Origin: an uncultured Gemmatimonadaceae bacterium
GTDB lineage: Bacteria > Gemmatimonadota > Gemmatimonadetes > Gemmatimonadales > Gemmatimonadaceae
Reading direction: 5' to 3'
Assembly: GCA_963829055.1 (NCBI GenBank)
Contig: CAWHHI010000012.1
Span: 352,001 to 416,000, forward strand
DNA: 64,000 nt
Below are positions 1,238-64,000 of the stretch, one piece after another. A program made the translations under genes and the position numbers. Every line of letters starts with the position of its first letter. Positions within the stretch are counted from its first letter, which is position 1. The notes under the pieces were generated by a model, which saw only the letters and a program-made list of their open reading frames with translations, made no database searches and was not told the origin of the DNA.

Positions 1238-2764
1238 CTACCGCGCGAGATCTGCCCAGGGAGTTGCCGGCAGATGCTCACTGAACACGCGCTCGACATC
1301 GAGCCCCTCACGCTTCACCAGACGCGCGAGCTCGGCGCGATAGGCGCCAGAGAACACCGGCTCGAACGCATCCGGTATCACGACATCGCTCGCATAGAGC
1401 AGCCGTCGCGCCGGTAGCCACACGAGCATCATCGCGGCCGAGTGCTGCCCGCGCGCTGGGCGAAGCTCGAGGCGCTCATCGCCTGTACCGAGCGTGAGCG
1501 CCCGTGAGACCGAACGAACGGTCGGCTGTGTGTGCGCCTTCGCGAGTGAGTCCGGCGCTTGGGCATGTGGCGCCGCGAGCAGCGCCTGCACGACCGGCGT
1601 TCCGACATCCGTCACGTAGATGGGAATCCCGCGCGCGGCGTATTCGCGGAGACCGCCTGCATGCATCCACATGGGCGACGTGTTGATCACCGCCTTCACG
1701 CGCATACCCGGCCAGCGCGTCGCAACGTCGGCCAGCACAGCCCTGCTCTTCGCGTTCGATTCCGGCGCCTCGATGATCACGATGCCATCGCGCTGACGGA
1801 CCGCCGCGGACTGATAGCCGCCCTGGTAGAGCACCACGCCGTCCGCGAGATCGACCGGAGTCAACTTCACGTTAGGCCCGCGCCCGGTGGCTGCGCGCTC
1901 AGCACCAAGACGGGTCGCGAACGCCAGGCGCACGCTGTCCGGGATTGCGACCGAGTCCGCGGGGACGTCGCTGTCGAGGTCGAGCGCGGTAACGACAAGC
2001 TCGCGGAACGGCTCGCCGTTGAGCGTCGTCGATCGCTGGCGCGGGTACCAGACACCGCGGCGTTCGAGCGCCCATGCCGACCACGTCGTCACGAAGCGCA
2101 CGTCGCCCCACATGGCCCAGAAGACGTAGCTCGGGTACGCTCGCACCAGCTCGACGCGCGTCGGGAACGCACTCTCCGCATCGATGAACAGGCGCACCGG
2201 CGCGCCATCGAGACCTAACGACACGACGCGATGCGTGATGCCACCCAGTACTGTGTCACGCCCGAGGCGCAGATCCCGCGCGTCGAGCGCGGTGAGCAAT
2301 ACGCGCTCGGGAGAAAGCGCGAGCTCCTCGCTGGCGGTAGTGAGGTCGACGTTCGCGCCCATCACCAACGCCGTTCCGCGAATCGCGGCCGGTACTCCTC
2401 GGTTCACGATCGTCGTCGTGGTGAACCGACCGGCGCGCATGGGCACGGCCTGCACGAGCGTGCGACGCAGCACGCTGTCGTTGCCCGACCTCAGTGTCGT
2501 CACGGTCTCCGAGATGACACGCGGTGGTGCATCGCCCCGCGTGATCGTCGACACCAGATATTCGGAGCCGACTTCTTCGACCCGCACGCCGCGAAGTGCG
2601 CGGAGGCGATCGATGCCGCCTATCGCTTCGGCGCTCGCGAGTACGACGTCGCGCGCTGTCTGTGCTCGGCGCGGCGCCGGATTGGGCCTGCGAGTGACAA
2701 CCGCGGAGGAAAGGGAGAAGGCGAAGCCGGCGGCGAGGACGGCAGTGGTCGCGGAGCGTAGCAT
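1238..2764 (-). CDS. Exported MBL-fold-like protein with degenerate metal site
   Basis: Signal peptide; IVIIEAP and VINTSPMWMHAGGLREY resemble MBL motifs, but HxHxDH is not intact. Confidence 0.6.
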   Translation of the reverse strand: MLRSATTAVLAAGFAFSLSSAVVTRRPNPAPRRAQTARDVVLASAEAIGGIDRLRALRGVRVEEVGSEYLVSTITRGDAPPRVISETVTTLRSGNDSVLRRTLVQAVPMRAGRFTTTTIVNRGVPAAIRGTALVMGANVDLTTASEELALSPERVLLTALDARDLRLGRDTVLGGITHRVVSLGLDGAPVRLFIDAESAFPTRVELVRAYPSYVFWAMWGDVRFVTTWSAWALERRGVWYPRQRSTTLNGEPFRELVVTALDLDSDVPADSVAIPDSVRLAFATRLGAERAATGRGPNVKLTPVDLADGVVLYQGGYQSAAVRQRDGIVIIEAPESNAKSRAVLADVATRWPGMRVKAVINTSPMWMHAGGLREYAARGIPIYVTDVGTPVVQALLAAPHAQAPDSLAKAHTQPTVRSVSRALTLGTGDERLELRPARGQHSAAMMLVWLPARRLLYASDVVIPDAFEPVFSGAYRAELARLVKREGLDVERVFSEHLPATPWADLAR

Positions 2765-2918
2765 GAAGGCGGGACGGAGGACGGGTGACAGGTGACGAGC
2801 GCCCACTATGGCCCGACTGCTTCCGCCCTGCCCTGCTCATGCAGCGAACGCGGCTTCCGTGCAGTAAGCGCCGCGACGCGTCAGCGAGCGCCACGCCGCT
2901 TACTCGACCACGATCGCG

Positions 2919-3408
2919 TCAGCGCTTTGCGGCAGCCCCGCCAAAGCGCACGAGCACCGTGTCGCGACGACGCTCGCTCACGCTGATCCGACTGCCGTCC
3001 TCGAGGCGAAGATCGAGCTGTCCGCGCTCACCACGCGTGAGCTCGCGCACGCGGTCGATGTTCACGATCGCGCCGCGGTGCACGCGCACGAACCGCGCTG
3101 GATCGAGCTGCCCCTCGAGCGACGACAGCGACTGCCTGACGAGAAACGACCCACTGACCGTGTGCAGTCACGAACACGACCGCGGGAAGCGCCTCTCTGG
3201 CGAGCGATGCGAGCACGGCGAATCCGTCGAGCTCCGGCATCTGCACGTCGAGAAACACGAGGTCGGGCGCGAGCTGTCGGATCGCGCCTAACGTCTCGAC
3301 ACCATTGCGACTCTCGCCCACGACCTCCACGTCCGCATAGCCCGCGAGCAACCCCCGAACCACGCTCCGCGCGAGCGGCTCATCATCGGCAATGAGCGCG
3401 CGGATCAC
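2919..3408 (-). pseudogene. LytTR response regulator with internal deletion
   Basis: REC N-half (LIADDEPLAR..FLDVQMPELDGF..VFVTAH) joins out of frame to a LytTR C-half (LHTVSGSFLVRQSLSSLEGQLDPARFVRVHRGAIVN). Confidence 0.8.
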
Positions 3409-4560
3409 TGGACCTCCGCGTACGACGACTGAAACGGCACACGGAGTGACGCCGTGGCGCCGCCGAGCGTGCCGGCGCCAAGCGTGAGGGAACAATCGGC
3501 GCCGTAGAGCCGCGTCAGGCGGGCACGCGTATCGGCCAGCCCGAGGCCGACGCCAGCCGATGCCACCGAGCCGCGAGCGGCGGCCGCGCCATCCGCCGTC
3601 ATGCCAGGACCGTCGTCACTCACGTCGATGGCGAGCGCACGTCCATCGCGTCGCGCGGAAATACGCAGCCGTCCCGCATTCCACGACGCAGCCACAGCGT
3701 GTCGCATCGCATTTTCCACCAGCGGCTGGACGACGAGCGACGGCACCACCGCATCGCCTACGCCAGGCTGCAGATCCCACTCGACGCGCAGCCGATCGGC
3801 GAAGCGGACCGCCTCGATGTCGAGATAGCGGCGCACGAACGCGAGCTCGTCGCGAAGACGCACCATGTCCGGCGCGTCACGGGAGATCGCCTCGCGCAGC
3901 AGCTCACTCAACTCGGCCACGACGCGAACCGCCGCCGCATTGTCGCCCCCACGCACCAGCGCGCCTATCGAGTGAAGTGCGTTGAACAGGAAGTGCGGGT
4001 GAAGGCGTGCCCGCAGTGTCGCCAGCTCGGCGCGCGCGAGCTGCTCGCGCAGCTCCGCATCACGGACCTCTCGTTCCTTGAGACGCCGCGCGTAGTCCAG
4101 CGCCGCGCCGGCCGCGATGATGGCACCCCACACGAGGGCCCCGATGGGCAGCCACGCGAGCGACACGCGCCACAGATAGCTGCCGAACGGGATGCGCACT
4201 GGTCCTCCCACTACGAGGTACGTCGCGCCTGCGTAGACGGTGCCGCGCAGACACGCAGCGGCACCAATGCCAAGCGCGTGCACCACAAGCGACTTCGCGG
4301 CCGGCGGCCAGGCGATTGGGTAGCGACGCGCCAGGCGCATGATCACGGGCGTCAGCGGCACCCAGATCAGCCATTCCGCCAACGCCGGCACGAGCGCTCG
4401 CGGCGGGGGCACGGGCGTGCCGTTGATGACCGCGGTCGCGTACATCTGCAGGACCATGAATGCGGCGGGCACGAGCCACACCGCGAGCGAGGATGGCCCC
4501 CTGGCGTCGCACGCGTGCGTGGTGGGCGGGTGCCGAGGGTACAGCAGGCGTCGGGGGCAT
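3405..4560 (-). CDS. LytS-type membrane sensor histidine kinase (apparent frameshift near 4490)
   Basis: LRARLHPHFLFNALHSI, QPLVENAMRH, SDDGPG, GLGL motifs; TM N-terminus; GTGA-coupled to the LytTR gene. Confidence 0.9.
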
Positions 4561-4741
4561 GGCGCAGTCTCATTCCGTGCACGCGTTCGGGCAACGCTGG
4601 TCGTGGCCAATCGGCGACGGACCCACACCAGTCCGGCCAACCATCGCGAACCACCCCAACCCTTTTGCATGGTCGCGCGTTAGCTTCCGCTTGGCACTTT
4701 CTAGAGTCCTGGGGCGTTCACTCACCGACACGAGGACAGGG

Positions 4742-5752
4742 GTGGGGACACAGCTACGCGAGCAACACCGCACCGACGAGCGTGACCTCGAGCTGCTGCA
4801 ACAGCTCACGCAGGCACGGAAGCGGCTCACCGACCAGATCGCGCGACGGATCATCGGCCAGGTCGATGTCATCGACAATCTGGTGGCGGCCATTCTCGCC
4901 GGCGGCCACGTGCTGCTGGTCGGTGTGCCGGGGGTGGCGAAGACGCTGCTCATTCAGACGCTGTCGCAGGCGCTCGACCTGAGCTTCAACCGCGTGCAGT
5001 TCACGCCGGACCTCATGCCGGCGGACATCACCGGCACCGAGCTGCTCGAGGAAGACCACGCCACCGGTCGCCGGGTCTTCAAGTACATCAAAGGCCCGGT
5101 GTTCGCGAACATCGTGCTCGCCGACGAGATCAACCGCGCCCCGCCAAAGACGCAGGCCGCGCTGCTCCAGGCGATGCAGGAGCACACGGTCACCGCGGCT
5201 GGCTCGACCCACGCGCTGCCCGAGCCGTTCTTCGTCCTCGCGACGCAGAACCCGATCGAGCAGGAAGCGACGTATCCGCTTCCCGAGGCACAGCTCGACC
5301 GGTTCATGTTCGAGCTCCGCATGGGCTACCCGTCGAAGGATGACGAGGAGCGCATCGTCGTCGCGACTACTGGCGCCACGGAGAACGAGATCGTCCCGGT
5401 GCTGCATGGGTCGCAGGTCATCGAGCTTCAGAAACTCGTGCGCCGCATCCCTGCTCCGCCGACGATCGTGAAGTACGCGGTGCACCTCGCCCGTGCCACG
5501 CGGCCGCAGGAGTCCGACGCCGGCCCCGAAGTGCGGAAATACGTGAGCTTCGGCGCCGGGCCCCGTGCGTCGCAGTATCTGGTGTTAGGCGCCAAGGCGC
5601 GTGCCGCGATGGACGGACGCCCCGTACCGGACATCGACGACGTGCGAGCCATTGCGCTGTCCGTGCTGCGACACCGCGTCGTCATGAACTTCCAGGGCGA
5701 AGCGGAAGGCGTGAGCGTCGAGAAGCTGCTGCCGCTCAACGAGAAGCGTTAG
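4742..5752 (+). CDS. moxR: MoxR family AAA+ ATPase
   Basis: GHVLLVGVPGVAKT, RVQFTPDLMPADITG, LADEINRAPPKTQAALLQAM, ATQNPIEQEATYPLPEAQLDRF. Confidence 0.93.
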   Translation: MGTQLREQHRTDERDLELLQQLTQARKRLTDQIARRIIGQVDVIDNLVAAILAGGHVLLVGVPGVAKTLLIQTLSQALDLSFNRVQFTPDLMPADITGTELLEEDHATGRRVFKYIKGPVFANIVLADEINRAPPKTQAALLQAMQEHTVTAAGSTHALPEPFFVLATQNPIEQEATYPLPEAQLDRFMFELRMGYPSKDDEERIVVATTGATENEIVPVLHGSQVIELQKLVRRIPAPPTIVKYAVHLARATRPQESDAGPEVRKYVSFGAGPRASQYLVLGAKARAAMDGRPVPDIDDVRAIALSVLRHRVVMNFQGEAEGVSVEKLLPLNEKR

Positions 5753-5775
5753 GAAACGCGTCCGCAAGAAGTCAG

Positions 5776-5811
5776 GCTCCGGAGGGCGCATGCGCCCTCC
5801 GGAGCTTTTTC
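5776..5811 (+). terminator. Intrinsic terminator
   Basis: Perfect 30-bp palindrome gctccggagggcgcatgcgccctccggagc followed by a T-run, between convergent genes. Confidence 0.85.
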
Positions 5812-5842
5812 ATCCGCTGCCCGCGGTCACACCACAGACACG

Positions 5843-6700
5843 TCAATCGTTAGGCATCGATCGTCGCACGGCCGAGGGCGGCGTGCCCTCGGCCGCATGG
5901 AATGCGCGCGTCAAATGGCTGTGGTCCGCAAAGCCCGCCTCGTGCGCGATGGCCGCAATCGACCGGTCACCTCGAATGAGCTCGGCCTTCACCCACTCGA
6001 TCTGCCGACGGCGTTGGTACTGCCACGGCGTAACCCCGTAGCGCCGCTTGAACGCCCGCGCGAACGACGACGGATGGAAACCCGCGACCGCCGCCAGCTC
6101 CGCGAGTTGAAACGCGCGGGTAAAATGCGCGTCGATGAATTCGCGCGCGCGCGCGAGTCGGGCAACAGCCCGTTCGCGGTCTCCGGGTGCGTGGCAGGTA
6201 GAGGTCGAGCGGACGAGTTGCGCGAGCATGGCCAGCACCAGCCCCTCGATGGCAAGGTCGCTCGCCTGATCGCGATGATGAAGCTCCCACTGTAGCTGGC
6301 CGGCGAGCGTACGCACGGTGCCATCCCCGACAATGGCCGCCCTGCCTAACAACCGCCTGATGCGTCGATCGCCGAGCGTTTGCTCCAGCGGAATATCGAC
6401 GATCGTGAGCCGTGTGCCAGCCGGATCGAATTGATTGGCATGCGGCTCTTCGGACGGCCGGATGTGCAGCATGCCGGCGCCGCAGACGGCCACTCCGCGG
6501 CGGGTCGTCTCGAGAAAGCTCCCGCGTGCGACGAACGAGAATGCCGGGCGCGCGTGTGTGTGGGTGGGCAGTGACATGCCGTTCGTGTATTCCGCGTCGA
6601 GAACCTGGTAGCCGGCAACCTCCGCGACGGCAATGCGTCGACCCGCCACGTCCGCAGTCGTGTCATGTGACGTCGCATATCCAGGCCGTGCTTCGATCAT
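5843..6700 (-). CDS. AraC family transcriptional regulator
   Basis: Cupin N-domain (HTH..HIRPSEEPHAN) and AraC HTH (IAHEAGFADHSHLTRAFH..GTPP); start uncertain. Confidence 0.9.
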   Translation of the reverse strand: MIEARPGYATSHDTTADVAGRRIAVAEVAGYQVLDAEYTNGMSLPTHTHARPAFSFVARGSFLETTRRGVAVCGAGMLHIRPSEEPHANQFDPAGTRLTIVDIPLEQTLGDRRIRRLLGRAAIVGDGTVRTLAGQLQWELHHRDQASDLAIEGLVLAMLAQLVRSTSTCHAPGDRERAVARLARAREFIDAHFTRAFQLAELAAVAGFHPSSFARAFKRRYGVTPWQYQRRRQIEWVKAELIRGDRSIAAIAHEAGFADHSHLTRAFHAAEGTPPSAVRRSMPND

Positions 6701-6931
6701 CAGTCCCGTCCCACGGAGAATCGACATGGCCAAGGTGGGGAGCGGGAACAAGAGCCGCCAACGCAATCTCATCAACTTTCAAATGAGCCGCGCTCATGGC
6801 TCCGCATGTCGCGCGGGCATGGCTGCGATCATCCAAGCGCCGGCACGGATCTGACAAGCGCTCCGTGTCGCCGAAGCCGATGATGCGCTCGAGACGAAAG
6901 CATGCTCCACCTTGATCCCCAGGAGTGCGCG

Positions 6932-7888
6932 ATGATCCTCGAGGTCCGCCACCTTCGTATTCTCGCGGCGATCGCCGATCACGGGACCGTATCGGCCGCC
7001 ACGAAGCAGGTTTACCTGACGCAGTCGGCAATCAGCCATCAACTGATCGAGCTCGAGCAGCGGCTCGGAGTACCGTTCTTCCACCGCACACCGAAAGGCA
7101 TGGTGCCTACGGATGCCGGCGCCGAGATGATCGGGGTCGCGCGCGACGTGCTCGCTCGGCTGGCGACCGCGGAAGCCTCGATGCTGCGGTCGACGCCACG
7201 CTTGGCCGGTCGGCTGCGCATCGGCACGGACTCGCCGCTTGCGCTCACGTGGCTGCCGGCCGCCGTCGCGAGCGTCCGTCGCCGGCTGCCGCACATCAGG
7301 GCGGAGCTCGTTCCGGAGACCCTCGCTCACGGCGTCGACGCCCTGTTCGAAGGCCGCTTCGAGCTCGCGGTCAGTGCTGATCCAGAGCCGGACCCACGAC
7401 TCGATCTCGTGCCGTTGTTCGACGAGGAGCTCGTCGCGTTGGTCGCGAGTGCCCACCGGCTCGCCGATCGCCCTCTCCTCTCGAGCGGTGACCTCCGCGT
7501 CGAGCAGCTCGCGGTTCACACCGCGCGGCCGGCGGAGCAGCGATGGCTCACGGATCGGCTCGCGGCTGCCGGTCTCGAGCCGATGCGCCTAACGCCCGTG
7601 ACGCTCACGGAGGCGATCATCGGGCTCGCCGAAGCCGGTGAAGCAGTCGCAATCGTTCCACGCCCGATCGCCGACGCCGCCGTGCGAGCAGGTCGGGTAC
7701 GCGCGCTACGCGTAGGCCAGCACGGCTTGCGTCGGCGATGGCACCTCGTGACGCTCGCGACCGGAGTCAGCGCTCTGCATGTGCAATGCTTTGTCGCGGC
7801 CATCCAGTCGGCCGCGACCGAGGCTGCTGGAATCTCCGACGAGCGGTCGATGCCCACCCGGTCACCACGCGTGCCGCGATCGGCCTAA
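6932..7888 (+). CDS. LysR family transcriptional regulator (MetR-like)
   Basis: LEVRHLRILAAIADHGTVSAATKQVYLTQSAISHQLIELEQRLG HTH. Confidence 0.93.
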   Translation: MILEVRHLRILAAIADHGTVSAATKQVYLTQSAISHQLIELEQRLGVPFFHRTPKGMVPTDAGAEMIGVARDVLARLATAEASMLRSTPRLAGRLRIGTDSPLALTWLPAAVASVRRRLPHIRAELVPETLAHGVDALFEGRFELAVSADPEPDPRLDLVPLFDEELVALVASAHRLADRPLLSSGDLRVEQLAVHTARPAEQRWLTDRLAAAGLEPMRLTPVTLTEAIIGLAEAGEAVAIVPRPIADAAVRAGRVRALRVGQHGLRRRWHLVTLATGVSALHVQCFVAAIQSAATEAAGISDERSMPTRSPRVPRSA

Positions 7889-7942
7889 CGCCTGTCGAGC
7901 ACCGAAACGCCTCGGCGCCCATCCGAGACGCCGGCCCGGGAG

Positions 7943-8728
7943 TCAGCCGATAGCCCGCCGATCGGCGCCAATCTCGGCGCGGATCAGATCGAGTACGTAG
8001 CGATGGCCGCCTCGCGAGCGAAGGTCGAGCGGACGCAGTCCTGTGTAGCGCTTACAGGTGACGCGCAGCGACGCGCCGGAGCGAAACCCAGCTGCGTCCG
8101 CGACCTGGTCCACCGAGCGGGCCGGGTCCTCCAGCAGGTGCGCCGCCACAAGCAGGCGCGACCACGTGATCAGCGCCGCTGCCCCCGGGAGACCGGCGCT
8201 GCCGAGCCGGCTGACGAGCGTGCGCCGGGCGATGCCTAACGCATGCGCGATGCCTTCCACGCCGTCGCTGCCGATGGGATTGTTGAGGCAGTAGGCAAGA
8301 ATCGGCCGCACGGAGGCGGACACGAACGGGCTCAATTCGGCGAACGCCTGCTCCCCGACGCGGCTCACCGCGGCTCGCGCAATGATCTGGCTGGCGACGG
8401 TCCCCACGTCATCGAAGTCTCGAACGATGACGTCGTCGGCACCGGCACGCACGAGGGCAATGAGCGAATGCGTGTCCGCAGCCGTCAGCGCGCAATGGGC
8501 GATGACCGGGAGCGACGGGAATCCTTGCCGGATTTCCGCCACCGTGGCCGCGGTCTGCCGCCCGATCTTGTCCGTCGGCTCGGTAATGACCAGGTGGACA
8601 CAAAAGCGGCGAACGAGTGCCCGCAGCCCTTCAATGCGTTCGCAGAAGTGCACCTCGGCCACACCGTGAAGACCACGGCGCAGCACGAGGCGGTCTCTGG
8701 GATCGAGAACGAGCGCGGCGACAATCAC
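7943..8728 (-). CDS. AraC-like HTH regulator with degenerate receiver-like N-terminus
   Basis: C-terminal SVDQVADAAGFRSGASLRVTCKRYTGLRP; N-terminus REC-like (LPVIAHC..AGADDVI). Confidence 0.7.
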   Translation of the reverse strand: MIVAALVLDPRDRLVLRRGLHGVAEVHFCERIEGLRALVRRFCVHLVITEPTDKIGRQTAATVAEIRQGFPSLPVIAHCALTAADTHSLIALVRAGADDVIVRDFDDVGTVASQIIARAAVSRVGEQAFAELSPFVSASVRPILAYCLNNPIGSDGVEGIAHALGIARRTLVSRLGSAGLPGAAALITWSRLLVAAHLLEDPARSVDQVADAAGFRSGASLRVTCKRYTGLRPLDLRSRGGHRYVLDLIRAEIGADRRAIG

Positions 8729-9109
8729 GCAACACTACTCCCGGCCAGTTGGCCGACGTCGAATCGAGATTTGTAAGGCCGAATCGGAGCGGACGGCAGT
8801 GCTCCGCGGAGCAGGAGGGTATGGGCCTGCACCGCGCCCGTCAAGAACACCAAAGCTTGCTGTCCGTTTAACGCGTGGCCATTGACCGGTCTGCTCACGG
8901 CGTTACGATTAGTGCGCATAGTGTTACCTTGGTAGCAGATCAGTTGGTGTCAGCCCGCGCCCCGCGGGAACACAACAGTCGCGCACAGATTCGACCTGCG
9001 CGGAACACGGTCCCATACCCACACCGACCAGCCTATGCCGAGCCGCGCGAGACCCGATAGAGCCTCACGAGCGGGAAGGGTTACGAAGAGCCAAAGGGTG
9101 GTGGCCGCT

Positions 9110-9907
9110 ATGAAGTCCAAGACACGAGGCAAAGGCCGCGGCGGCTCACGAGGCCCACGCGTGGTCAGCAGGAATGTCGCGCCGGCCATCGTCGCCATGA
9201 GTCGCGCGCTACGCGATGCGCGGACGAAGGCAGAGCTCAGCAAGGCCACAGCCGCCGATAAGATCGGTGTGCACTTCGTGACCCTGTACGCGTGGGAGAA
9301 CGAGAACCGCACCGACCAGCCGAGCGACGAGAACCTGGCGAAGGCCGCGAAGGCGTACGGCACCACGGCCGAGACGCTGCAGCGGCGCGCGAAGGCAATC
9401 GAAGCAGGGCTTAGCGCGGAATCGGGAGCAGGCGACGCCACCGAAAGCGCCGCTGCCCCAGCGGCGAAGAAGGCTCCAGCCAAGCGCGGCCGCCCAGCGA
9501 AGGTGAAAACACGAGGGGCACAACGCGCCGAGGCTCCTGCCCCGCCGGTAGCCAAGAGACCGGTGGGTCGGCCGAGGTCCACACCGGCCGTGAGCGCGCC
9601 GGTGAGCGCGCGGGTGAGCGCGCCTGCGAACGGCCGCGTCACGAATCATGCGCAGGTGACGCTGTCTCACCAGGCGTATGCGCGCGTGCTCCGCGTGCTC
9701 GCCGATCTCGCCGAGGACCTGTCGCTCTCGCCGTCAGCACTCGGCGCCGCACAGCAGGCGCTCACCGCTCCCGGAATGCTCGACGTCTTCGCCGCGTTCA
9801 CATCGGCGCCGATGACCGACGCCGACATCCTGAACGCGATCGACGCCACGAGCGTCGCCGTCCGCTCGTTCGTCGCCGCTCGGAAGGTCCCCGCGGGACA
9901 ACGGTAA
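9110..9907 (+). CDS. XRE-family HTH protein with Lys/Ala/Pro-rich AT-hook linker
   Basis: LRDARTKAELSKATAADKIGVHFVTLYAWEN HTH; KRGRPAK and KRPVGRPRS motifs. Confidence 0.75.
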   Translation: MKSKTRGKGRGGSRGPRVVSRNVAPAIVAMSRALRDARTKAELSKATAADKIGVHFVTLYAWENENRTDQPSDENLAKAAKAYGTTAETLQRRAKAIEAGLSAESGAGDATESAAAPAAKKAPAKRGRPAKVKTRGAQRAEAPAPPVAKRPVGRPRSTPAVSAPVSARVSAPANGRVTNHAQVTLSHQAYARVLRVLADLAEDLSLSPSALGAAQQALTAPGMLDVFAAFTSAPMTDADILNAIDATSVAVRSFVAARKVPAGQR

Positions 9908-9970
9908 CACGAGCATGCCCGTTTCGGGCGACCGCCACCACGGCGGCCGCCCGGAGCCGGCTGCGATTCA

Positions 9971-10420
9971 TTGTCGTGCGGTCGGCCTCTGCGCGTCCGG
10001 GACGCGTCAGTCGCGCTCGTGTTCGTCCTGGCGGCAGGCGCAGCGCGCCTAACGCTGGCACAGACGGTCACCGTCCCCACCGAAAGGCGTGGGTCGGCCG
10101 TGACAGCATCCGGTTCGACGCCATCGCGTAGCGCCGGTCGCCACCGTGCCCGTCGACTCCGCGCGGTGGGTCGACGCCGATAGCGTCATGGATCGCGATC
10201 TACCTGACGGGCTCTATTTCGGCATGAACGCCCGGGGGCTGCGTGACGATCTGGGCATCATGTCGCCCGGCGGTGATGCGGTGTAGGTGCCGCTCCAGCG
10301 CAGACGCAACGAGCTGGTCGTTGCCGTACCCGAGTACTCTGGTGGGTGGGCATTCTGGGCACGGCTGGACGCGGTGAGCCACGACGAATTTCCCCGGGGA
10401 CTAACTTTGGACGTACCACC
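9971..10420 (+). pseudogene. Probable gene remnant
   Basis: Signal-peptide-like start, a frame change, and an in-frame TAG within protein-like text (LYFGMNARGLRDDLGIMSPGGDAV*VPLQRRRNELVVAVPEYSGGWAFWARL). Confidence 0.35.
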
Positions 10421-10467
10421 AAAGACGGTGGTAGCAATCCGATCAGTTGTGCGAGGTCCCCTGGCCG

Positions 10468-11511: not shown

Positions 11512-11693
11512 TGTCGGGCGACGTGCACCGCCGCCTAACGTGACACGACTGCGCTGGCGCCGCGCGCCGCGCCGGCGCGAGGTGGTCCGCTCGGCGGACG
11601 CTGTCCTGGTACTAGACGGCCCCGTCATCGACCGGTGAAGTTGCGATGTCGCACCGGCGAGGGCGCCGGAGCGCGTCTCCTCGACCAACGACA

Positions 11694-12726: not shown

Positions 12727-12860
12727 GCGCCAACTTCGACGCGCGTTTCGACACCGGCTGCGACAGTCGTGCGAGGGCAAAATGACGCCTGACTGACGCG
12801 TTGCGTTTAATTGGAGCCGTGACGACTTTCTCAGATCCGTACACGGAGCCAGCAGTCCGC

Positions 12861-50446: not shown

Positions 50447-50854
50447 TTAGTTACACTTCGGTTCAGCTTCGACGGTCGCGGGACCGACCGCGGCGACGCC
50501 GATGAAGATCGAGCAGGTGCGGGTCGTCGCGCTGTGCGCCGCCGTGGCGCTCCAGCCCGAGCCGCCCGTCGCCACCGCGGCCACTGCCACGCCCGCCGAC
50601 GGGACGAACCCGGCCAGCGACGCGGTGGTGCCGGCTTGGTTCTTCCCGCTGCCGGTCGTGTAGACCTGGAAGTCGGAGAAGTAGCCTTCCTGCACCGTCG
50701 CCATGTTGCGGAGGTCGGACTTCATCGACGCGAGGTACGCCTTCTCCTTCGTGTTCGCGAACTTCGGGATCGCGATCGCGGCGAGAATACCGATGATCAC
50801 GACGACGATCAGAAGTTCGATCAGGGTGAAGCCCTTGCGAGTGGTGTTGCGCAT
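50447..50854 (-). CDS. pilA: Type IVa major pilin, copy 1
   Basis: Same motif; mature protein differs from copy 2 at two residues. Confidence 0.95.
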   Translation of the reverse strand: MRNTTRKGFTLIELLIVVVIIGILAAIAIPKFANTKEKAYLASMKSDLRNMATVQEGYFSDFQVYTTGSGKNQAGTTASLAGFVPSAGVAVAAVATGGSGWSATAAHSATTRTCSIFIGVAAVGPATVEAEPKCN

Positions 50855-55228: not shown

Positions 55229-56727
55229 TTCCGCGGGAGCGGGAGAGTGCGCGCGATGCGAGCAGAGTCCAGCAGCGCGATAGCTGCGGCCGCTCGCTGT
55301 TGACGCTCGGCGACGTTTGCCGCCTCTCGGTACACGACGGAATCGCGCGGGAACAGCCGCCGTGCGATCACGAGCTCTCGTTCGGCCTCATCGAGTGCAT
55401 TCGCGCCACGAAGCACGCGACCGGCAGCGAGATGCGCCTCGTACGATTCGGGATGATCGGTGAGCAGCGCCAGCAGATACGTCCGATCGTCGTGCCATAC
55501 GGGCGTCCGCGTCCATGTGCGAACGCCGAATGCCACTACCACCGATGCCGTAGCGGCCGCGACCATCGCGGATCGCGTGAAGAGATAGCGCTCTGCCACG
55601 GCGCCGGCAGCCAGGCAAATCCCCACGCTGGCGAGGTAGAGCGTTCGCTCGGCGAGGAGGACGCCTGAAGCGAAGATCACGTTCGACACCGGGGCCAGCG
55701 CGATAGGGACCCACAGGATCGCGAAGGCCAATACAGCCCATCGTGCACGGCGCAGTAGCACCACGACCGCGACCCCGAGCAGCACGGCGATCACGACGCC
55801 CAACAGCGTCATGGCCGACAGCCCTGGCGACGGTGAGATGACGTTAGGCGCGTAGCTGGCCGACAGGTCAGCGGGCGCGATGAGCAGGCGAGCGTAATGC
55901 GGGATCACTCGGGCGACGAGCTCGAGCCGAGACCCGAATGTCGTTCCGGCGAACACCCGCGCCGGCGCAGTGATCTCGCGGGCGTGGAAAACGGCGAGCA
56001 GCACGACGGCGTAAGCGGCCGTCACGGCACCGTATGCCGCGTACATCCGCCGACGCAATCGCAGCGACGCGCGCCAGTCGCGCTCGAGCACGAAATCATT
56101 CGCCGCGGCCAACGCGAGAAAGACGATTGCGCTCTCCTTGCTGAGGAGCCCGAGCGCGAAGAACGGAACAGCCATCCAGCTCGAGCGTCGGTGCGCGAGC
56201 AGCGCAGCGATAGCGAACACCGTACCCATCGGCTCGAGCCGGCCCACGACGTTGGAGATCGCCTCGACGTGAACGGGATGCACCGCGAACAGGAGCGCGG
56301 CGATGCCGGCCGCGACCGGCGCGAGCAGCTCGGCGGCGAGCAACCACACCATGAGTGTCGCCAGCGCGTGCCAGAGCACGTTGACGGCGTGAAACCATCG
56401 CGCATCGCCGCCGGACACGACCCAGTCGAACGCGAACGACAGAATCCCTAGTGGTCGGTACTGGCCGCCACCAATGGCCTCGGGCCAGTACGGGAGTGCG
56501 AACGCTCTCCATGCGCTCGCGGGCGATGTCACGAGCGGGTTGCGCACGATGACGCCGCCGTCGTCCAGGACGAATCCGTTCGCGAGCGCGTTCGCGTAGA
56601 CGAGCATCGCCGCGGCCATCGCACCCACCATCGCGACGCGCTTCACGCGCAGGCGGCCGGTGAGATCGACAAACGCCGGCGTCGCGGCCCCGCGCGAACG
56701 GCCCTGCGGCACGGCGCCCGCTGTCAC
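55225..56727 (-). CDS. TMTC-like protein O-glycosyltransferase with short TPR tail
   Basis: GFVLDD..I..NP, YRPL, FHAVNVLWH, LFAVHPVHVEAISNVVGR, LLSKES, AERTLYL, W..D. Confidence 0.85.
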   Translation of the reverse strand: MTAGAVPQGRSRGAATPAFVDLTGRLRVKRVAMVGAMAAAMLVYANALANGFVLDDGGVIVRNPLVTSPASAWRAFALPYWPEAIGGGQYRPLGILSFAFDWVVSGGDARWFHAVNVLWHALATLMVWLLAAELLAPVAAGIAALLFAVHPVHVEAISNVVGRLEPMGTVFAIAALLAHRRSSWMAVPFFALGLLSKESAIVFLALAAANDFVLERDWRASLRLRRRMYAAYGAVTAAYAVVLLAVFHAREITAPARVFAGTTFGSRLELVARVIPHYARLLIAPADLSASYAPNVISPSPGLSAMTLLGVVIAVLLGVAVVVLLRRARWAVLAFAILWVPIALAPVSNVIFASGVLLAERTLYLASVGICLAAGAVAERYLFTRSAMVAAATASVVVAFGVRTWTRTPVWHDDRTYLLALLTDHPESYEAHLAAGRVLRGANALDEAERELVIARRLFPRDSVVYREAANVAERQQRAAAAIALLDSARIARTLPLPRK

Positions 56728-58103
56728 GCCTCGGCCCCGAACCGCGACAGCTTGCGATGCAACGTCGACGGGTCGATGCCTAACGTCTCGGCCGCGCGGG
56801 TCTTGTTGCCCGCCTCGCTCTGCAGCACCCACATGATGTACGCGCGCTCGATCGTCTCGAGCGTCGGATTCCGAACCGGACGCTCTTCCACCAGTTTGAC
56901 CGGGTCCGGCGCCATGATGCGGTCGGGGAGACCGTCGATCTCGATGACCTCGCCCGGCGTGAGAATCACGGCCCGCTCGAGCGCGTTCTCCAGCTCTCGA
57001 ACGTTGCCTGGCCACGAGTAGTTCATCAGCGCATCCTGAGCGTTCGCGCTGAGCCGTTTCGGGGTTTCGCCGCGCTGCATGCCCGACCGATCGAGGAACG
57101 ATCCGGCCAGCAACGGAATGTCGTCGCGGCGCTCGCGAAGCGGCGGCAGGTAGATCGCGATGACGTTGAGCCGGTAGTAGAGATCGCGCCGGAAGATGCC
57201 ACGGCGAATATCCTCCTCGAGATCACGATTCGTGGCCGCGACGAGCCGAGTGTCGATGGGCTGCGACTCCGTCGCGCCGACAGGAATCACTTCGCGATGC
57301 TGCAGCACGCGCAGCAACTTCACCTGCGTCGCGGGCGTCGTTTCGCCGATCTCGTCGAGAAAGAACGTGCCCTTCGCGGCCGCCGTAAACAGACCGCTCT
57401 TGTCCTTCACGGCTCCAGTGAACGAACCCTTCACGTGGCCGAACAACTCGCTCTCGAGCAGACTCTCGGGAAGCGCGCCGCAGTTGATCGAGAGGAACGG
57501 CCCCTCGGTCCGATTCGACAGGTCGTGAATGTAGCGGGAGATCACTTCCTTACCCGTACCGGATTCACCCTGAATGAGTACGGTCGATTCCGTAGGCGCG
57601 ACCGTTTCGGCGAGTCGCAACACGTCGAGCCAGTTGCGGCTGTTGCCGATCGGCCGCGAGCCCACGTGCTTGTCGCGCCGACGGATCTCCTGCTTGAGCG
57701 ACGAGTTCTCGACACGCAAATGCCGATGCTCGGCAGCGCGTCGAAGGATCGCGACCAGCTCGTCGTTCCGAAACGGCTTCTGAATGTAGTAGAACGCACC
57801 TTCGTTCACGGCCTGCATCGCCGACTGCAGAGTCGCCTGCGCCGTCATCAGGATGACGGGCGTGTTCGGGTCACGCTGTCGCGCCGCGGACAACACCTGC
57901 AAGCCACTCACGGTCGGCATGCGAACGTCGCTCAGCACGATGTCCGGCGACAGCGACTCGATCTGATCGAGTCCGGCCTTTCCGCCGAGAGCGACGTGAG
58001 GCACGAACCCTTCGTTCTTCAGGAGGATGCGCAGTGAGTCCAGGATCCCGGCCTCATCGTCGATGATCAGGACGTTAGGTGCGCCGTTCGAACGCTCGCT
58101 CAC
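56724..58103 (-). CDS. pilR: Sigma-54 response regulator PilR-like
   Basis: REC (IIDDE, SDVRMP, QKP), [14 protein letters not shown], Fis HTH; inside the pilus locus. Confidence 0.85.
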   Translation of the reverse strand: MSERSNGAPNVLIIDDEAGILDSLRILLKNEGFVPHVALGGKAGLDQIESLSPDIVLSDVRMPTVSGLQVLSAARQRDPNTPVILMTAQATLQSAMQAVNEGAFYYIQKPFRNDELVAILRRAAEHRHLRVENSSLKQEIRRRDKHVGSRPIGNSRNWLDVLRLAETVAPTESTVLIQGESGTGKEVISRYIHDLSNRTEGPFLSINCGALPESLLESELFGHVKGSFTGAVKDKSGLFTAAAKGTFFLDEIGETTPATQVKLLRVLQHREVIPVGATESQPIDTRLVAATNRDLEEDIRRGIFRRDLYYRLNVIAIYLPPLRERRDDIPLLAGSFLDRSGMQRGETPKRLSANAQDALMNYSWPGNVRELENALERAVILTPGEVIEIDGLPDRIMAPDPVKLVEERPVRNPTLETIERAYIMWVLQSEAGNKTRAAETLGIDPSTLHRKLSRFGAEA

Positions 58104-59794: not shown

Positions 59795-59908
59795 ATTGCG
59801 CTGAAGTAGACTTCGGGGGATCTATGGCATTCTGCTACGATCTGGACGATCTGGTTTGGAGGTTGTTTCCGAGTGCAACTGGCTGAGCATCTGAGCTTTG
59901 GCGCGTAC

Positions 59909-61240
59909 ATGTGGCGCCTGGTGGTGGTCATTCTGCTCGTTCTCGCCAACGCGTTCTTCGTTGCGGCGGAGTTCGCGCTCGTCGGGTCGCGGCGGAGCAA
60001 GATCGATCAGATGGCGGGTGAAGGAGACCGGCTCGCGAAGGCGGCGCAGACCGCGCTCAAAGACCTGGATCGGTACATCTCGGCCACGCAGCTGGGGATC
60101 ACGCTCGCATCGCTCGGGTTGGGGTGGATCGGCGAACCCGCGCTCGCGGGTCTGGTCGATCGGTTTCTCGCCCTGTTCGGCGTCCACCCGCCGGCGGCCG
60201 CCGTGCACACCGCGGCCGGAGTGGTCACGGCCTTCGTCATCATCACGTTCCTTCACATCGTGCTCGGCGAGTTGGCGCCGAAGTCGATGGCCCTGGTGAA
60301 GCCCGAAGGCGTGAGCCGGGCGCTGGCGATCCCGCTCATGGTATTCGCCCGCGTCATGTCGCCGGCGATCACGCTGCTGAATGGCACCGCGAACTGGCTC
60401 ATGCGACGGCTCGGCATCGCGCCGCAGTCGGAAGCGCAGCATGTGCACTCACCGGAAGAGCTACGACTTCTCGTGATGCAGGCGCGCGCGCACGGCACGC
60501 TCGACGAGGCCGATTCGGCGATGTTGGCCGGGGTGTTCGACTTCCACGAGAAGAAGGCGTACGACGTCATGCGACCACGCACCGAAGTCGCGGCGCTCGA
60601 CATCGAATCCACCGCGGCCGAGGTGTGGGAATTCGTGCGACGCGAGCGCTACTCGCGGTATCCGGTGTATCGCGATACGCTCGACGACGTCGCCGGCGTG
60701 TTCCTGGCGAAGGACCTCTGGCTTTATGACGGACAGGAGCCGTTCTCGCTCGAGACCTTCGTGCGGCAGGCGCTGTACGTGCCGTCGAGTCGGGCGGCCG
60801 AACGCGTGCTCGACGACCTGCGGAAGACGCGGGCGCAGATGGCCGTGGTGCTGGACGAATACGGCGGCACCGCCGGCATCGTGACGATGGAAGACCTCAT
60901 CGAGGAAGTCGTCGGAGACATTGCAGACGAGTACGACTTCGCCTCGCGTACGGCAGTGATGACGGACGGCGTGCTCGAGCTGGCCGGCTCGCTGTCGCTC
61001 GTGGACGTGCGGTCGGACTACGGGCTCCGAATTCCGGAAGGCGACTGGTCGACGTTAGGCGGCTACGCGTTCGGCCGCGTGGGCCGCGTGCCGAAGATCG
61101 GCGACCGGGTGCCCTTCCCCGGCGGCGAGTTGGAAGTCATTGCGATGGATGGTCGCCGGGTGGCGGGACTCCGCGTACACCGCGACAACGCGACGAAGAC
61201 CGATACGCCCGCAACGGCGGCCGCTGCTCTGCATCCATGA
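59909..61240 (+). CDS. CNNM/DUF21-CBS-CorC (hemolysin-family) protein
   Basis: NAFFVAAEFALV, TQLGITLASLGLGW, GELAPK, DEYGGTAGIVTMEDL. Confidence 0.93.
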   Translation: MWRLVVVILLVLANAFFVAAEFALVGSRRSKIDQMAGEGDRLAKAAQTALKDLDRYISATQLGITLASLGLGWIGEPALAGLVDRFLALFGVHPPAAAVHTAAGVVTAFVIITFLHIVLGELAPKSMALVKPEGVSRALAIPLMVFARVMSPAITLLNGTANWLMRRLGIAPQSEAQHVHSPEELRLLVMQARAHGTLDEADSAMLAGVFDFHEKKAYDVMRPRTEVAALDIESTAAEVWEFVRRERYSRYPVYRDTLDDVAGVFLAKDLWLYDGQEPFSLETFVRQALYVPSSRAAERVLDDLRKTRAQMAVVLDEYGGTAGIVTMEDLIEEVVGDIADEYDFASRTAVMTDGVLELAGSLSLVDVRSDYGLRIPEGDWSTLGGYAFGRVGRVPKIGDRVPFPGGELEVIAMDGRRVAGLRVHRDNATKTDTPATAAAALHP

Positions 61241-61258: not shown

Positions 61259-61535
61259 AACGGCTTTGACAGGATGGGCAGAATGGGCAGGATGACGGCA
61301 ACGGCAACGGCAACTACATGACAGGATTGGCAGGATGGACAGGATTGAACAGAGGCTCCGTGTCGCGCCCAACGTCCCTCCCGCAACGAGCCCAGTGTGA
61401 GAGGAACGGCCGCTCAGGACGCCACTCGCTCCGAGATGTGTTCCCACATTCGTTAGGCCCCGGCGACACGCTCCCCGACGCCGAGACAGTCATCCTGCCA
61501 ATCCTGCCAATCCTGGCCATCCTGTCAAAGCCGTT
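61259..61535. repeat. MITE/REPIN-like element with terminal inverted repeats and 9-mer repeats
   Basis: AACGGCTTTGACAGGATGG ... CCATCCTGTCAAAGCCGTT; CAGGATNGG units on both arms. Confidence 0.75.
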
Positions 61536-62007: not shown

Positions 62008-62160
62008 GCGTCGGCGTGGCTCACGGACGCATGACGGGCTGTCTGCGACATGCCCGATTGGAAAGGGGGCTCACCAATCCTGCATGAAGCAAACAGCCCG
62101 TCAACAGACGTCGGCCGTACTCCGGCGCCTAACGCACGACGCCGGTCCAGTGTGGCTCTC

Positions 62161-62886
62161 TCAGTGCGTCGGAATCCCGATCGACACGCCGAAGCGATAG
62201 GTGACGAAGTTCGCTTCGCTCCGGATCGGATTGATGACGATGCTCCCGTCCGGCCTGTCCCTGATGCTTCCCTCGCGGAGGTACGTCGCTTCGCCGTTCC
62301 GGTGGAACGTAGCACCGAGATCGAGGAGCACCGGCGTGCGACCCAGGAACAATGGGATCATGAAGCCGCCACCGCCTGTGAGCGCGAACACGACATCGTC
62401 GTGATTCGTCGTATCGAACAGATTCTCGGCGTCGTTGTTCCCGCTCAGCGATGAATGCGTGAAGAAGTAGCTCATCCCCGCCGTAGCGTTGATGTATGGA
62501 CGCAGCGGCCCGGCGGGAACAGTGATCTGCGGGCCGATGCCAGCGAACGCGATGTCGTTGCTCGTGTTCACATTCACGTCGACGCGGCAGCTGAACGGAC
62601 AGATGGTCGTGTTCTCACTGCCGTACTGCAGGAACCCGCCTTCGGCGCGAATGCCGAACACCCGATCGCGATCGAGATTCCAGACGAATCCGCCGGTGAC
62701 GCCGTACCCCTGACCGATGAAATCATTGAAAGCGCCAATGGGCTGCGCGACGGCGAAATTGATGTCGCCGTAGGCACGCGGAAGCGTCGCGTCGGTGCGG
62801 CGGGCCGGCGTACCCTGTGCCGAGAGCGTCGATGCGATTGCACTCGTGAGTACGAGCGCGCTGAAAATGCGAGGTGCGCGAAACAT
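62161..62886 (-). CDS. Outer-membrane beta-barrel-like protein
   Basis: Signal peptide, alternating beta strands, LRPY, C-terminal YRFGVSIG. Confidence 0.7.
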   Translation of the reverse strand: MFRAPRIFSALVLTSAIASTLSAQGTPARRTDATLPRAYGDINFAVAQPIGAFNDFIGQGYGVTGGFVWNLDRDRVFGIRAEGGFLQYGSENTTICPFSCRVDVNVNTSNDIAFAGIGPQITVPAGPLRPYINATAGMSYFFTHSSLSGNNDAENLFDTTNHDDVVFALTGGGGFMIPLFLGRTPVLLDLGATFHRNGEATYLREGSIRDRPDGSIVINPIRSEANFVTYRFGVSIGIPTH

Positions 62887-63085
62887 GAGACCCGTTAGGT
62901 AGAGTCGCCGCAGGAGACGCGGCTTCTGGTTTCGAAGCAATACGTCCCCGCGCATTGAACGTTTCACGATCGACGTCGGCCGTCCCTGGGCGATGATACC
63001 GCTCGATCGCGCAAAAAGTGCCCGAAGGCAAACTGCTGAACCCATCGGGCACTGCGGGCGTCACCGGCCGGTCGTTCCGCTCAAC

Positions 63086-64000
63086 TCACCACGGAATGTC
63101 CTCACCGAACGGATCACCCGGCGGCGGACGAAGTGCCGGGCTCGGCGTCGGAAGCTCGCGACGCTCGATCCAGCGTACGAAGTCGCCGGCAAGGCTCGCG
63201 AAGTGCGCGCGCTGCTCGACCGTGCCCGCGCGTGACTGGCTGCGCGCTCGCGGCAGCAGCTCCGTGATCTTCAGCTCCGCCATCGCCCGGACCTCCGGCG
63301 CCGCACCGCTGTCGGCGGCGAGCGAGAGCAACCGGTCGGCGACAGCGCGCTGTGCGACGCGCGACAGCGCCGCCATCTTCGGCGAGGCGGGAGCGGCACG
63401 ACCCCATGTTCCATCGATGAGCGCGTCGATCGTCTGCGCCAGCGTTAGGCTGCGCTCGCCGTACGCCCCCTGCTGCACGAGACGGGCAGCCCGTTCGCGT
63501 TGGAGGACGCCGTCGACGATCATCTGCGCGAGCGTGCGGGCGGCGCCGAGCTCATCGAATGCCGGTCGAGTGCGCGTTCCGAACAGCTCGACGGACCCGC
63601 TGTACGAGAATGGCCGCGGCGCGAGCAGCGTCAGGACGGTGTCGGGGATCGCGAGCTCCGCTGGCTGTAGTCCCGCGACGAGCGCGGCAAGCGCCTGTCG
63701 TTGCCGCGCGGCACTGACTGGGCGCGATGCCTGCTGGCCATCGCCCGCGAGCGCGTTGCTGTACTCGAGCCCTCCAACCGCCTTCGTCGTGGAGTTGATC
63801 GCGAAGCGGTGGAAGAAGTAGAGCGGCGCAAAACGCTCCTGCAGCAGCGCCACCGGCTCGCCGGGTCGAAGATTCGCGAGTCCGAATCGGCTCATCGCCA
63901 CGCGGCGTACGTCCGTCTGATGCCGAAGGAATTCCAGCTCGGTCGCGGCGTCGTCCCAGAGATTCGTGCGCGGGTCCGAGGCGAAGTCGGGACGTGCGTC
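63086..64000 (-). CDS. Zinc-dependent metalloprotease (EcxA/DUF4953-like), 3' part
   Basis: NLWDD, PLYFFHRF, RQRQAL patterns; the HExxH site is not in the window. Confidence 0.6.
   Translation of the reverse strand, partial: DARPDFASDPRTNLWDDAATELEFLRHQTDVRRVAMSRFGLANLRPGEPVALLQERFAPLYFFHRFAINSTTKAVGGLEYSNALAGDGQQASRPVSAARQRQALAALVAGLQPAELAIPDTVLTLLAPRPFSYSGSVELFGTRTRPAFDELGAARTLAQMIVDGVLQRERAARLVQQGAYGERSLTLAQTIDALIDGTWGRAAPASPKMAALSRVAQRAVADRLLSLAADSGAAPEVRAMAELKITELLPRARSQSRAGTVEQRAHFASLAGDFVRWIERRELPTPSPALRPPPGDPFGEDIPW

Follow-up and report, generated by a model that had tools for sequence, protein, structure and literature searches.

Why does a single eight-letter DNA word recur throughout a 64,000-nucleotide stretch of DNA from an uncultured Gemmatimonadaceae bacterium? 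The stretch (“the window”) is C12:352001-416000 of genome G000 (GCA_963829055.1), in which genes were called with our own crude gene caller; genomes, contigs, loci and genera carry our own handles (G, C, L and g). The word is the 8-mer GCCTAACG, which reads CGTTAGGC on the reverse strand and is asymmetric, that is, not its own reverse complement. By exact match the window contains 31 copies, 16 on the plus strand and 15 on the minus strand. In 100 dinucleotide-preserving shuffles of the window the mean was 1.19 copies (sd 1.06, maximum 4), and none reached 31. The word is real and actively maintained across the whole genome, where point substitution has placed it in genes in every frame and on both strands as well as in intergenic DNA, and it overrides codon preference. 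It is also the crossover core of the integrons of these same bacteria, the most telling fact about it and one that an earlier, sequence-only reading of the window had missed.

That reading had listed 31 copies and about 19 variants that keep the CCTAAC core. All 31 were found at exactly the coordinates given, and the variants number exactly 19: the window has 50 CCTAAC cores, 31 in full words and 19 in variants (ACCTAACG six times, GCCTAACA five times, CCCTAACG four times and four further variants once each). Its figure of about 68% G+C was slightly high, since we measured 0.64-0.68 per 4 kb. The gene contexts it named (topA, pilM, pilQ, mog and hemA) hold, with hemA and mog better called hemA-like and MoCF/mog-like, and the word does supply stop codons, namely the TAA of a LysR-type gene (copy at 7883) and of the hemA-like gene (copy at 25234).

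The enrichment extends to the whole of G000 (7.78 Mb in 20 contigs, 66-67% G+C, 86% complete), which carries 5,004 copies, 2,457 forward and 2,547 reverse (0.64 per kb, or about 1 per 1.5 kb). Markov models of orders 0-3 expect 102-297 copies, for an observed/expected ratio of 17-49; when the word is masked in the background, orders 2-3 expect 60-69 copies and the ratio rises to 72-83. The overrepresentation suspected from the window is thus confirmed genome-wide at every order from 0 to 3. The word is by far the most over-represented 8-mer in G000 and ranks 18th in raw frequency despite its three A/T letters. Its flanks carry at most 0.13 bit of information, and there is no conservation beyond the eight letters.

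Our 6,782 gene calls cover 71% of G000 and contain 3,123 copies; the 1,524 copies outside them are an upper bound, because split genes leave the coverage of the gene calls too low. Genic copies are read as xCG TTA GGC (1,271), xxG CCT AAC G (857), xGC CTA ACG (577) and xxC GTT AGG C (405), and the word supplies stop codons in 370 gene calls. Shuffling synonymous codons within genes (n = 20) left 148 ± 10.6 copies (maximum 174) and shuffling codon order left 62 ± 8, against the 3,123 observed, so the enrichment is not lost in a codon-preserving shuffle. Peptide sites that can hold the word are filled to a high degree: 863 of 1,494 x-P-N-[VADEG] sites (58%), 1,271 of 5,612 [SPTA]-L-G sites (23%), 578 of 2,877 [SRCG]-L-T sites (20%) and 409 of 3,745 x-V-R-[LPHQR] sites (11%). 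This filling follows codon cost, in that frames requiring fewer rare codons are filled more completely. The dipeptide PN occurs at 1.39 times expectation, and within gene calls the word contains 1,272 of the 2,660 TTA codons (48%) and 579 of the 3,520 CTA codons.

Could such a signal be an artefact of sequencing, base-calling or assembly? One feature of G000 speaks for this: its frameshift-split genes (topA, aroC and addAB) suggest consensus errors. In the window, topA (34529-36875) lies in two pieces that meet at about 35445, and open frames are also split at C6:21576-22798 (aroC) and C15:10335-16049 (addAB-like). These splits point to frameshift errors in the assembly, as a consequence of which the gene calls reach only 71% of the genome. 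Other observations speak against an artefact. Part of the interval 7000-12000 of the window is contained in 20 public runs from 15 studies, and in contigs from four runs of four independent studies none of the 40 differences listed (a further 88 being unlisted) falls inside its five word copies. Six further genomes of the genus, in 260-1,170 contigs each, hold 2,501-5,112 copies, and foreign-looking stretches within the G000 assembly itself have zero copies. As far as the present data go, the artefact reading is refuted, and we give it next to no chance.

The longest of these stretches without the word are at the ends of contigs (C6:5440-55037, C11:1-46789 and C6:591808-623330). They carry fragmented housekeeping genes (aroC, ftsK, folD, pepA, trpG and a DAHP synthase gene) that have second copies elsewhere in G000 at 47-65% identity. 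Most simply, the stretches are DNA of another, word-poor organism joined to G000 in assembly or binning, and read as foreign DNA they serve as an internal negative control. A further word-free stretch at a contig end, C19:1-11556, has 56.5% G+C, and it too is probably contaminant or chimeric DNA from other organisms in the genome bin.

A word of this kind might also act inside the cell, as a Chi-like “self” tag for a machine that degrades or recombines DNA, such as AddAB, and that would spare or recombine tagged DNA, in which case host chromosomes, plasmids and phages would all accumulate it. The word has the length of Chi, eight letters, and G000 encodes an AddAB-like pair of PDDEXK nuclease domains at C15:11673-16010. 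Phage contigs with terminase, major head or endolysin genes carry 7-18 copies, and in one of them, L362 (20 kb), 16 of the 18 copies are on one strand. However, the orientation of the word is constant along the chromosome (145 bins of 50 kb, chi2 152, p 0.32) and independent of GC skew (Spearman rho -0.16, p 0.06), so that the strong replichore skew which would reassign the word to Chi or to FtsK-orienting polar sequences (KOPS) was not seen. RecC was not found in the 86% complete G000, and an observed/expected ratio of about 75 is far above the excess of Chi, which is only a few-fold. The viral evidence comes from a biased sample, 80 viral-contig loci picked by two close word copies: most have just those two copies or one-strand, cassette-like arrays, and only 2 of the 80 show the word at a both-strand density of 0.5 per kb or higher across 7 kb or more. 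On balance we consider a self tag unlikely, though it deserves to be taken seriously.

Among the viral loci, L350 (13.6 kb, G+C 0.68) encodes terminase, head-tail joining and major head proteins and has 7 copies, 3 plus and 4 minus, and L379 (7.8 kb, G+C 0.60) encodes a virion protein and an endolysin and has 12. No homologues of the L350 and L379 phage proteins were found in G000. Three other viral contigs of lower G+C (L354, L351 and L396; 0.30-0.52) have 8-14 copies, of which at most one departs from a common strand, and look like integron cassette arrays in low-G+C DNA.

If the word is under pressure, relatives should have kept or regained it, and they have. A blastn search of window positions 1-20000 against five genomes of the genus covered only 1 of 9 copies, and for this reason protein-guided alignments were used. 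We aligned G000 with 370 kb of G001, of the same genus (235 gene pairs, 81% amino-acid identity), and took control 8-mers 30 or 45 nt from the word sites. The word is exact in G001 at 47 of 94 G000 copies and in G000 at 47 of 96 G001 copies, as against 51 of 360 control 8-mers (14%) that are identical between the two genomes, so that word sites are kept 3.5 times more often than their neighbors. Amino-acid identity at word codons resembles that at controls, 0.83 versus 0.78 in G001 and 0.61 versus 0.61 in the word-poor genome G008 (400 kb, 187 pairs, 58% identity), in which 0 of 84 G000 sites are exact. Most sites not shared by G000 and G001 differ at two or more letters, which indicates that copies are gained and lost by substitution. 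Since compatible sites are very full, shared sites may reflect parallel gain in addition to common descent; whichever applies, the pressure for the word is current in both genomes. The sequence-only reading had guessed at an actively maintained tag, and the codon-aware shuffle, the saturated peptide sites and the 3.5-fold retention in orthologs all bear this out.

The variants that the genome tolerates indicate what is recognized. Words mutated in the core are at background rarity (GTCTAACG 24 copies, GCTTAACG 24 and GCCTAATG 13), whereas variants at the ends are enriched 14- to 21-fold (ACCTAACG 827 copies, CCCTAACG 428 and GCCTAACA 435), and GCATAACG is enriched 9-fold. Only 86 of the 7,103 CCTAAC cores in G000 lack both flanking Gs. 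This spectrum implies that recognition needs CCTAAC and one flanking G.

The same spectrum bears on the possibility that a mutational or repair bias writes the word, through a methyltransferase with a short-patch repair enzyme or through some other motif-directed conversion, much as a repair or methylation origin has been proposed for the cyanobacterial word HIP1. Such a bias would act on all resident DNA, and the word is indeed found in resident DNA including phage contigs, is absent from the foreign-looking stretches and is nearly absent from the interiors of integron cassettes. Yet there is no signature of very-short-patch repair among the three C>T neighbors of the word, which are not specially depleted (0.40, 2.18 and 0.71 of expectation), and Vsr was not found in G000 at its 86% completeness. 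The word is not palindromic, and enrichment from several neighboring words would need a specificity for more than one mismatch. We think a repair bias improbable, with only a slender chance of being correct.

Copies of the word also keep apart from one another over roughly 500 bp. Going out from a copy, the next one is met with a chance of 0.14 per kb in the interval 0-100 bp, then of 0.29, 0.50, 0.59 and 0.64 per kb, and from 600 bp onward the value levels off near 0.75 per kb. Three equally frequent control 8-mers, by contrast, form clusters. This pattern fits a rule of “one tag per fragment is enough.” Inverted pairs are not in excess; in G000, 41 same-strand and 30 opposite-strand pairs lie within 100 bp. 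A perfect 55-nt hairpin at C18:97493-97547, whose two ends are formed by the word and by its reverse complement, is the sole structure of this type that we saw.

Even spacing at short range, with exclusion over about 500 bp and a flat distribution beyond, could be expected if the copies were binding sites of a nucleoid-associated or chromosome-organizing protein and weak selection maintained them in populations of very large size. Balanced strands and the presence of copies both within and between genes agree with this. On the other hand, it would leave unexplained why the word is identical to the integron core, why it would have arisen repeatedly and why phage structural genes contain it, and no candidate protein was found. 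A nucleoid-protein site accordingly has little to recommend it, and we rate its chance as slight.

What, then, is the connection with integrons? According to a section of PMC12901181, the integron R' consensus is GTTRRRY with crossover after the first base, IntI1 binds attI1 at its R box in double-stranded form, and genomes contain attG sites; part of PMC10127599 describes off-target IntI inversions at GTTRRRY sites. Letter for letter, the word matches the R' crossover core together with the C before it (CG/TTAGGC, the slash marking the crossover) in attC and attI sites from the same groups of bacteria. Relatives poor in the word have their few copies in one-strand runs, with one copy every 500-600 bp. 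Of the 65 copies in word-poor G021, 40 fall in three such runs, two of which (on C95 and C80) read as attC arrays. Run copies in G021 and G019 end imperfect palindromes of about 95 nt, 5'-GCCTAACa ... CGTTAGGC-3', and directly 3' of the terminal CGTTAGGC come the ribosome-binding site and ATG of the next cassette. A palindrome of about 95 nt that ends in CGTTAGGC before the next gene identifies an integron attC site, with CGTTAGGC as its R' core. The same 8-mer terminates the attC sites of G021, G019, G000 and the verrucomicrobial genome G485; in the latter the attI junction ends ...CGTTAGGC and the attC sites end CGTTAG[GA][CT].

G000 has an integron of its own. An integron integrase (TIGR02249) scores above cut-off in 18 of 31 relatives, and in G000 intI lies at C20:208041-208958 (265.7 bits, cut-off 265) beside a co-directional, one-strand word array that extends up to 207188. 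The cassettes of this integron (L091 and L010) run in the same direction as intI and downstream of it, and their products include an esterase, Lgt, DUF1990, DUF1801, a BrnT-like toxin and DUF4440. Cassette interiors contain a single word copy between L010 703 and 9189. Elsewhere, at C4:2849-3239, a stand-alone frame matches only the first 104 residues of an integron integrase (the SAM-like DNA-binding domain) and then stops; it is probably a remnant, less probably a domesticated DNA-binding domain, and G002 has a similar integrase piece at a contig edge. As to the literature on integrons and attC sites in Gemmatimonadota, the paper examined merely names the phylum among integron hosts.

Given this identity, the copies might themselves be integron-integrase sites: bare R boxes used as attG-like landing pads or secondary IntI sites, or a by-product of IntI activity. 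The spelling identical to the R' core, the attC runs of G021 and G019, the C20 array of G000 and the attI junction and attC ends of G485 speak for this, as do the R-box binding and attG sites (in the section of PMC12901181) and the inversions at GTTRRRY sites (in that of PMC10127599). Several results run counter to it. More than 95% of the copies in G000 are bare 8-mers, dispersed and not beside intI: 262 of 5,002 copies have an inverse core at 40-140 nt upstream, versus 231 on the control side, so that dispersed copies lack the attC palindrome. Copies occur in essential genes, where cassette insertion would be lethal. The related word GTCTAACG (R' CGTTAGAC), frequent in attC sites, is not enriched genome-wide and stands at 0.40 of expectation. 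Close pairs are depleted most at distances under 100 bp, at which two sites could least readily be looped together. Finally, IntI scores above cut-off in 4 of 9 word-rich genomes versus 14 of 22 others, and was not found in word-rich G486. IntI presence does not track richness, and we rejected it as a correlate of the protein that reads the word. We regard use of the dispersed copies by IntI as distinctly unlikely.

How is the word distributed among relatives? We surveyed 401 genomes of the phylum from 148 genera and 12 families; six unpublished genomes (G013, G079, G199, G118, G425 and G426) enter only as tally rows. Among the 401, only some genera of the family to which the window belongs are word-rich: g1 (5,004 copies in G000), g9 (6,360), g43 (4,469), g40 (3,479-4,141), g37, g39, g45, g30, g5, g42 and g33. 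Within g40, one genome (G289) has only 66 copies, versus 3,479-4,141 in the others. One genus in each of two neighboring families shows weaker enrichment, and in the remaining genomes of the phylum the word is rarer than its letters read backwards. No alternative hyper-abundant word (a “dialect”) was seen in 400 kb of word-poor G008.

On a tree of HslU, a single gene from 31 genomes, the label “rich” changes at least five to six times. One rich clade unites g1, g9, g37, g45 and g22 (support 96/93), and elsewhere rich and poor genomes are sisters: the rich g40 trio (G236, G293 and G397) with poor G289 (97/92), rich G300 with poor G124 (99/92) and rich G010 with poor G151 (92/82). A second group of bacteria emerged from a scan, one genome per species, for two word copies 200-230 bp apart. 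Among the matches listed, those that recurred were records titled Gemmatimonadaceae or Gemmatimonas and Chthoniobacterales, Verrucomicrobiae or Spartobacteria. Four of five such verrucomicrobial genomes have 2,140-5,186 copies (0.7-1.4 per kb), which occupy every frame and either strand; the word-rich ones have a G+C of 57-62% and a consensus extended to cGCCTAACGA. Four of the five have an integron integrase, which was not found in word-rich G486. Only 2 of 301 genomes in an even sample of the verrucomicrobial phylum are rich. Judged from the copy counts and this tree, word richness appears to have at least five origins within Gemmatimonadaceae and a single one in a narrow lineage of verrucomicrobial bacteria.

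We tentatively favor the explanation that the word is a transfer tag like the uptake signal sequences (USS) of Pasteurellaceae and the DNA uptake sequences (DUS) of Neisseriaceae, read by a machine that recognizes the integron core; we put it somewhat short of an even chance. A sequence-specific DNA-binding machine would recognize the CCTAAC core and at least one flanking G and would bias which DNA passes between cells, by uptake or by another form of transfer, before homologous recombination. Such bias coupled to recombination would cause word-carrying alleles to spread by molecular drive, as has been proposed for USS and DUS. To our knowledge, the biased uptake and recombination of USS and DUS is the sole known process that writes words of this type, and the density, strand balance and anatomy of the word fit it. 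Because the same word arose independently in lineages where integrons with this core are endemic, the origins suggest a reader tuned to the integron core, or derived from a protein that reads it. A reader of the integron core would in addition favor DNA that carries gene cassettes. One extension is rather doubtful in our view, namely that several soil lineages independently copied the tag from the integron core and thereby preferentially acquire cassette DNA (“cassette fishing”). If true, thousands of by-product R boxes would turn each such chromosome into an expanse of potential IntI sites, from which new cassettes might also originate.

A number of points weigh against a transfer tag. Phage structural regions carry the word at host-like density, which is not required of an uptake tag. 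The 500-bp range of interference is shorter than usual transformation tracts. Uptake drive alone does not account for repeated origins of one word that matches the integron core, five or more of them within a single family and a further one in a second phylum. We know of no report of natural transformation for these groups. The uptake machinery is weak evidence in favor of a transfer tag: the window has a type IV pilus locus (pilMNOPQ, pilins and pilSR) and G000 has ComEC, DprA and a ComEA-like domain, but the same families are near-universal, being present in 10-11 of 14 control genomes. A ComP-like pilin, to which the sequence-only reading had pointed, did not turn up: ComP_DUS (PF16732), a search that tests for a DUS-type receptor only, is present in 0 of 9 word-rich genomes, and its weak matches in 10 of 31 genomes are all in word-poor or intermediate ones. 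The two pilins of the window were rejected as readers, with homologues in 31 of 31 genomes searched, as were the products of 304- and 383-residue open reading frames of the pilus operon, whose 31-39% identical homologues occur in rich and poor sisters alike. No reader was found among the candidates tried.

These candidates extended beyond the pilus. Topoisomerase IB (TopIB) was rejected, since it occurs in 34 of 65 genomes with no relation to richness: it is absent from rich G160, G319, G345, G115, G125, G486 and g73 and present in poor G289, G009, G011, G017 and others. All seven genomes of the genus have two paralogous poxvirus-type TopIB genes (in G000 at C4:50277-51404 and C19:85120-85710), and one of the G000 proteins is 59% identical to a verrucomicrobial homologue. 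The cassettes of the G000 integron encode no reader-like product. By tblastn, all G000 gene calls were compared with 1.08 Mb from four word-rich verrucomicrobial genomes, a sample of at most about a quarter of any one genome; in this sample the best 20 and a further 99 shared proteins, scanned against Pfam, gave only housekeeping families besides TopIB. At least eight G000 frames (C12:39890-43880 and C20:368410-378713) match one verrucomicrobial gene at 55-79% identity. The latter interval includes four tandem genes of 385-492 residues, of which the one scanned encodes an epoxide-hydrolase-type alpha/beta hydrolase, and the set is a gene-family expansion, possibly acquired.

Within the window, the copies in the Pro-Asn frame (xxG CCT AAC G) are at 1870-1877 (minus) in a coding sequence at 1238-2587 (minus), at 5848-5855 (minus) at the 3' end of an AraC-type regulator gene (5843-6751, minus), at 25050-25057 (plus) in the hemA-like gene (23929-25239, plus), at 34030-34037 (minus) in a Ser/Thr kinase gene (33587-34474, minus) and at 55842-55849 (minus) in a coding sequence at 55225-56727 (minus). 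The Leu-Thr frame (xGC CTA ACG) is used at 7587-7594 (plus) in the LysR-type gene (6902-7888, plus), at 16407-16414 (minus) in an HD-domain gene (16071-16838, minus), at 42366-42373 (minus) in pilQ (41820-43742, minus), at 46360-46367 (minus) in pilM (45796-46839, minus), at 47835-47842 (minus) in the 383-residue open reading frame of the minor-pilin operon (47331-48482, minus), at 49552-49559 (minus) in a PilV-like gene (49405-49764, minus) and at 63443-63450 (minus) in a coding sequence that starts at 63086 and runs off the window (minus). The copy at 7587-7594 is exact in G005, one letter off in G002 and three off in G001.

Antisense copies are read as Leu-Gly (xCG TTA GGC) at 8234-8241 (plus) in a coding sequence at 7943-8728 (minus), at 35261-35268 (plus) in the C-terminal piece of topA (34529-35449, minus), at 56778-56785 (plus) in a pilR-like sigma-54 activator gene (56724-58103, minus) and at 61053-61060 (minus) in a CNNM/CorC gene (59873-61240, plus). 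They are read as Val-Arg (xxC GTT AGG C) at 20860-20867 (plus) in the MoCF/mog-like gene (20534-21016, minus), at 35738-35745 (plus) in the N-terminal piece of topA (35442-36875, minus) and at 43427-43434 (plus) in pilQ. The two stop-codon copies are at 7883-7890 (plus; TAA at 7886-7888, LysR-type gene) and 25234-25241 (plus; TAA at 25237-25239, hemA-like gene). Outside gene calls lie the plus-strand copies at 3286-3293, 10047-10054, 11533-11540 (just past a coding sequence at 10468-11508), 46961-46968, 54782-54789 and 62127-62134 and the minus-strand copies at 20084-20091, 23089-23096 and 61451-61458.

The remaining copy, at 50414-50421 (minus), lies between two tandem PilA-type pilin genes (49938-50339 and 50450-50854) that are 97% identical to each other; their homologue in word-rich g9 (G014) is 79% identical, and those in the other genera searched are at most 69% identical. 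The hemA-like gene is a divergent second copy, the other G000 HemA being encoded at C5:167738-168970. Its relatives reach 70-75% identity only within the genus and 31-41% elsewhere in the family, and HemA was useless as a phylogenetic marker because the window gene is such a divergent paralogue. Compared with syntenic contigs in G001 and G005, the window contains additional DNA at 1225-4653 (about 3.4 kb versus 63-157 bp), with two word copies inside, and at 7827-10466 (2.6 kb versus 0.2-1.5 kb).

The sequence-only reading knew of no description of the motif, and our literature searches agree: for the word in either orientation the matches listed were only primers and unrelated sequences, and none paired “uptake sequence” with “Gemmatimonad.” We know of only two bacterial families that tag their own DNA with uptake words. 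A genome-wide word of the USS/DUS kind is now seen in two soil phyla little studied at the bench, where it appears to have arisen several times, and its integron-core spelling joins two problems, the origin of genome-wide words and the movement and origin of integron cassettes. Sister genomes with and without the word provide a handle for finding the reader. There are practical consequences as well. In annotation, codon usage is distorted by the word, which contains 48% of the TTA codons in gene calls and provides 370 stops there, and its absence flags foreign or chimeric stretches in metagenome-assembled genomes.

Several known systems resemble the word in part. The cyanobacterial HIP1 (GCGATCGC) is likewise a hyper-abundant 8-mer found in genes in all frames and has been linked to methyltransferases; HIP1 is palindromic, whereas the word is asymmetric. 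Chi, read by RecBCD or AddAB, and KOPS, read by FtsK, are also over-represented 8-mers across the chromosome, and G000 has an AddAB-like locus; the word differs from them in having no orientation skew and a tens-fold enrichment, and RecC was not found. With the integron R' box the word shares, letter for letter, the R' core and preceding C in relatives, in the G000 integron and in the verrucomicrobial integron. Unlike attC sites, more than 95% of its copies lack the R''-L''-L'-R' palindrome; they lie in housekeeping genes and are not beside intI, and unlike integron sites in general, its richness is not tracked by the presence of IntI. The closest parallel we propose is with USS and DUS. Like these, the word is short and asymmetric, with about one copy per kb and the two strands equally represented. 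It is found within genes in every frame despite codon preference, it allows changes at its ends but not in its core, it is spaced more evenly than random and it is restricted to particular lineages. It differs from Neisseria DUS, which form inverted-pair terminators, in having no excess of inverted pairs, from Haemophilus USS in lacking AT-rich flanks (flank information at most 0.13 bit), and from the DUS system in that word-rich genomes have no ComP_DUS family. Above all, the same word, and not a set of dialects, recurs in several lineages and in two phyla, and that word equals the integron recombination core.

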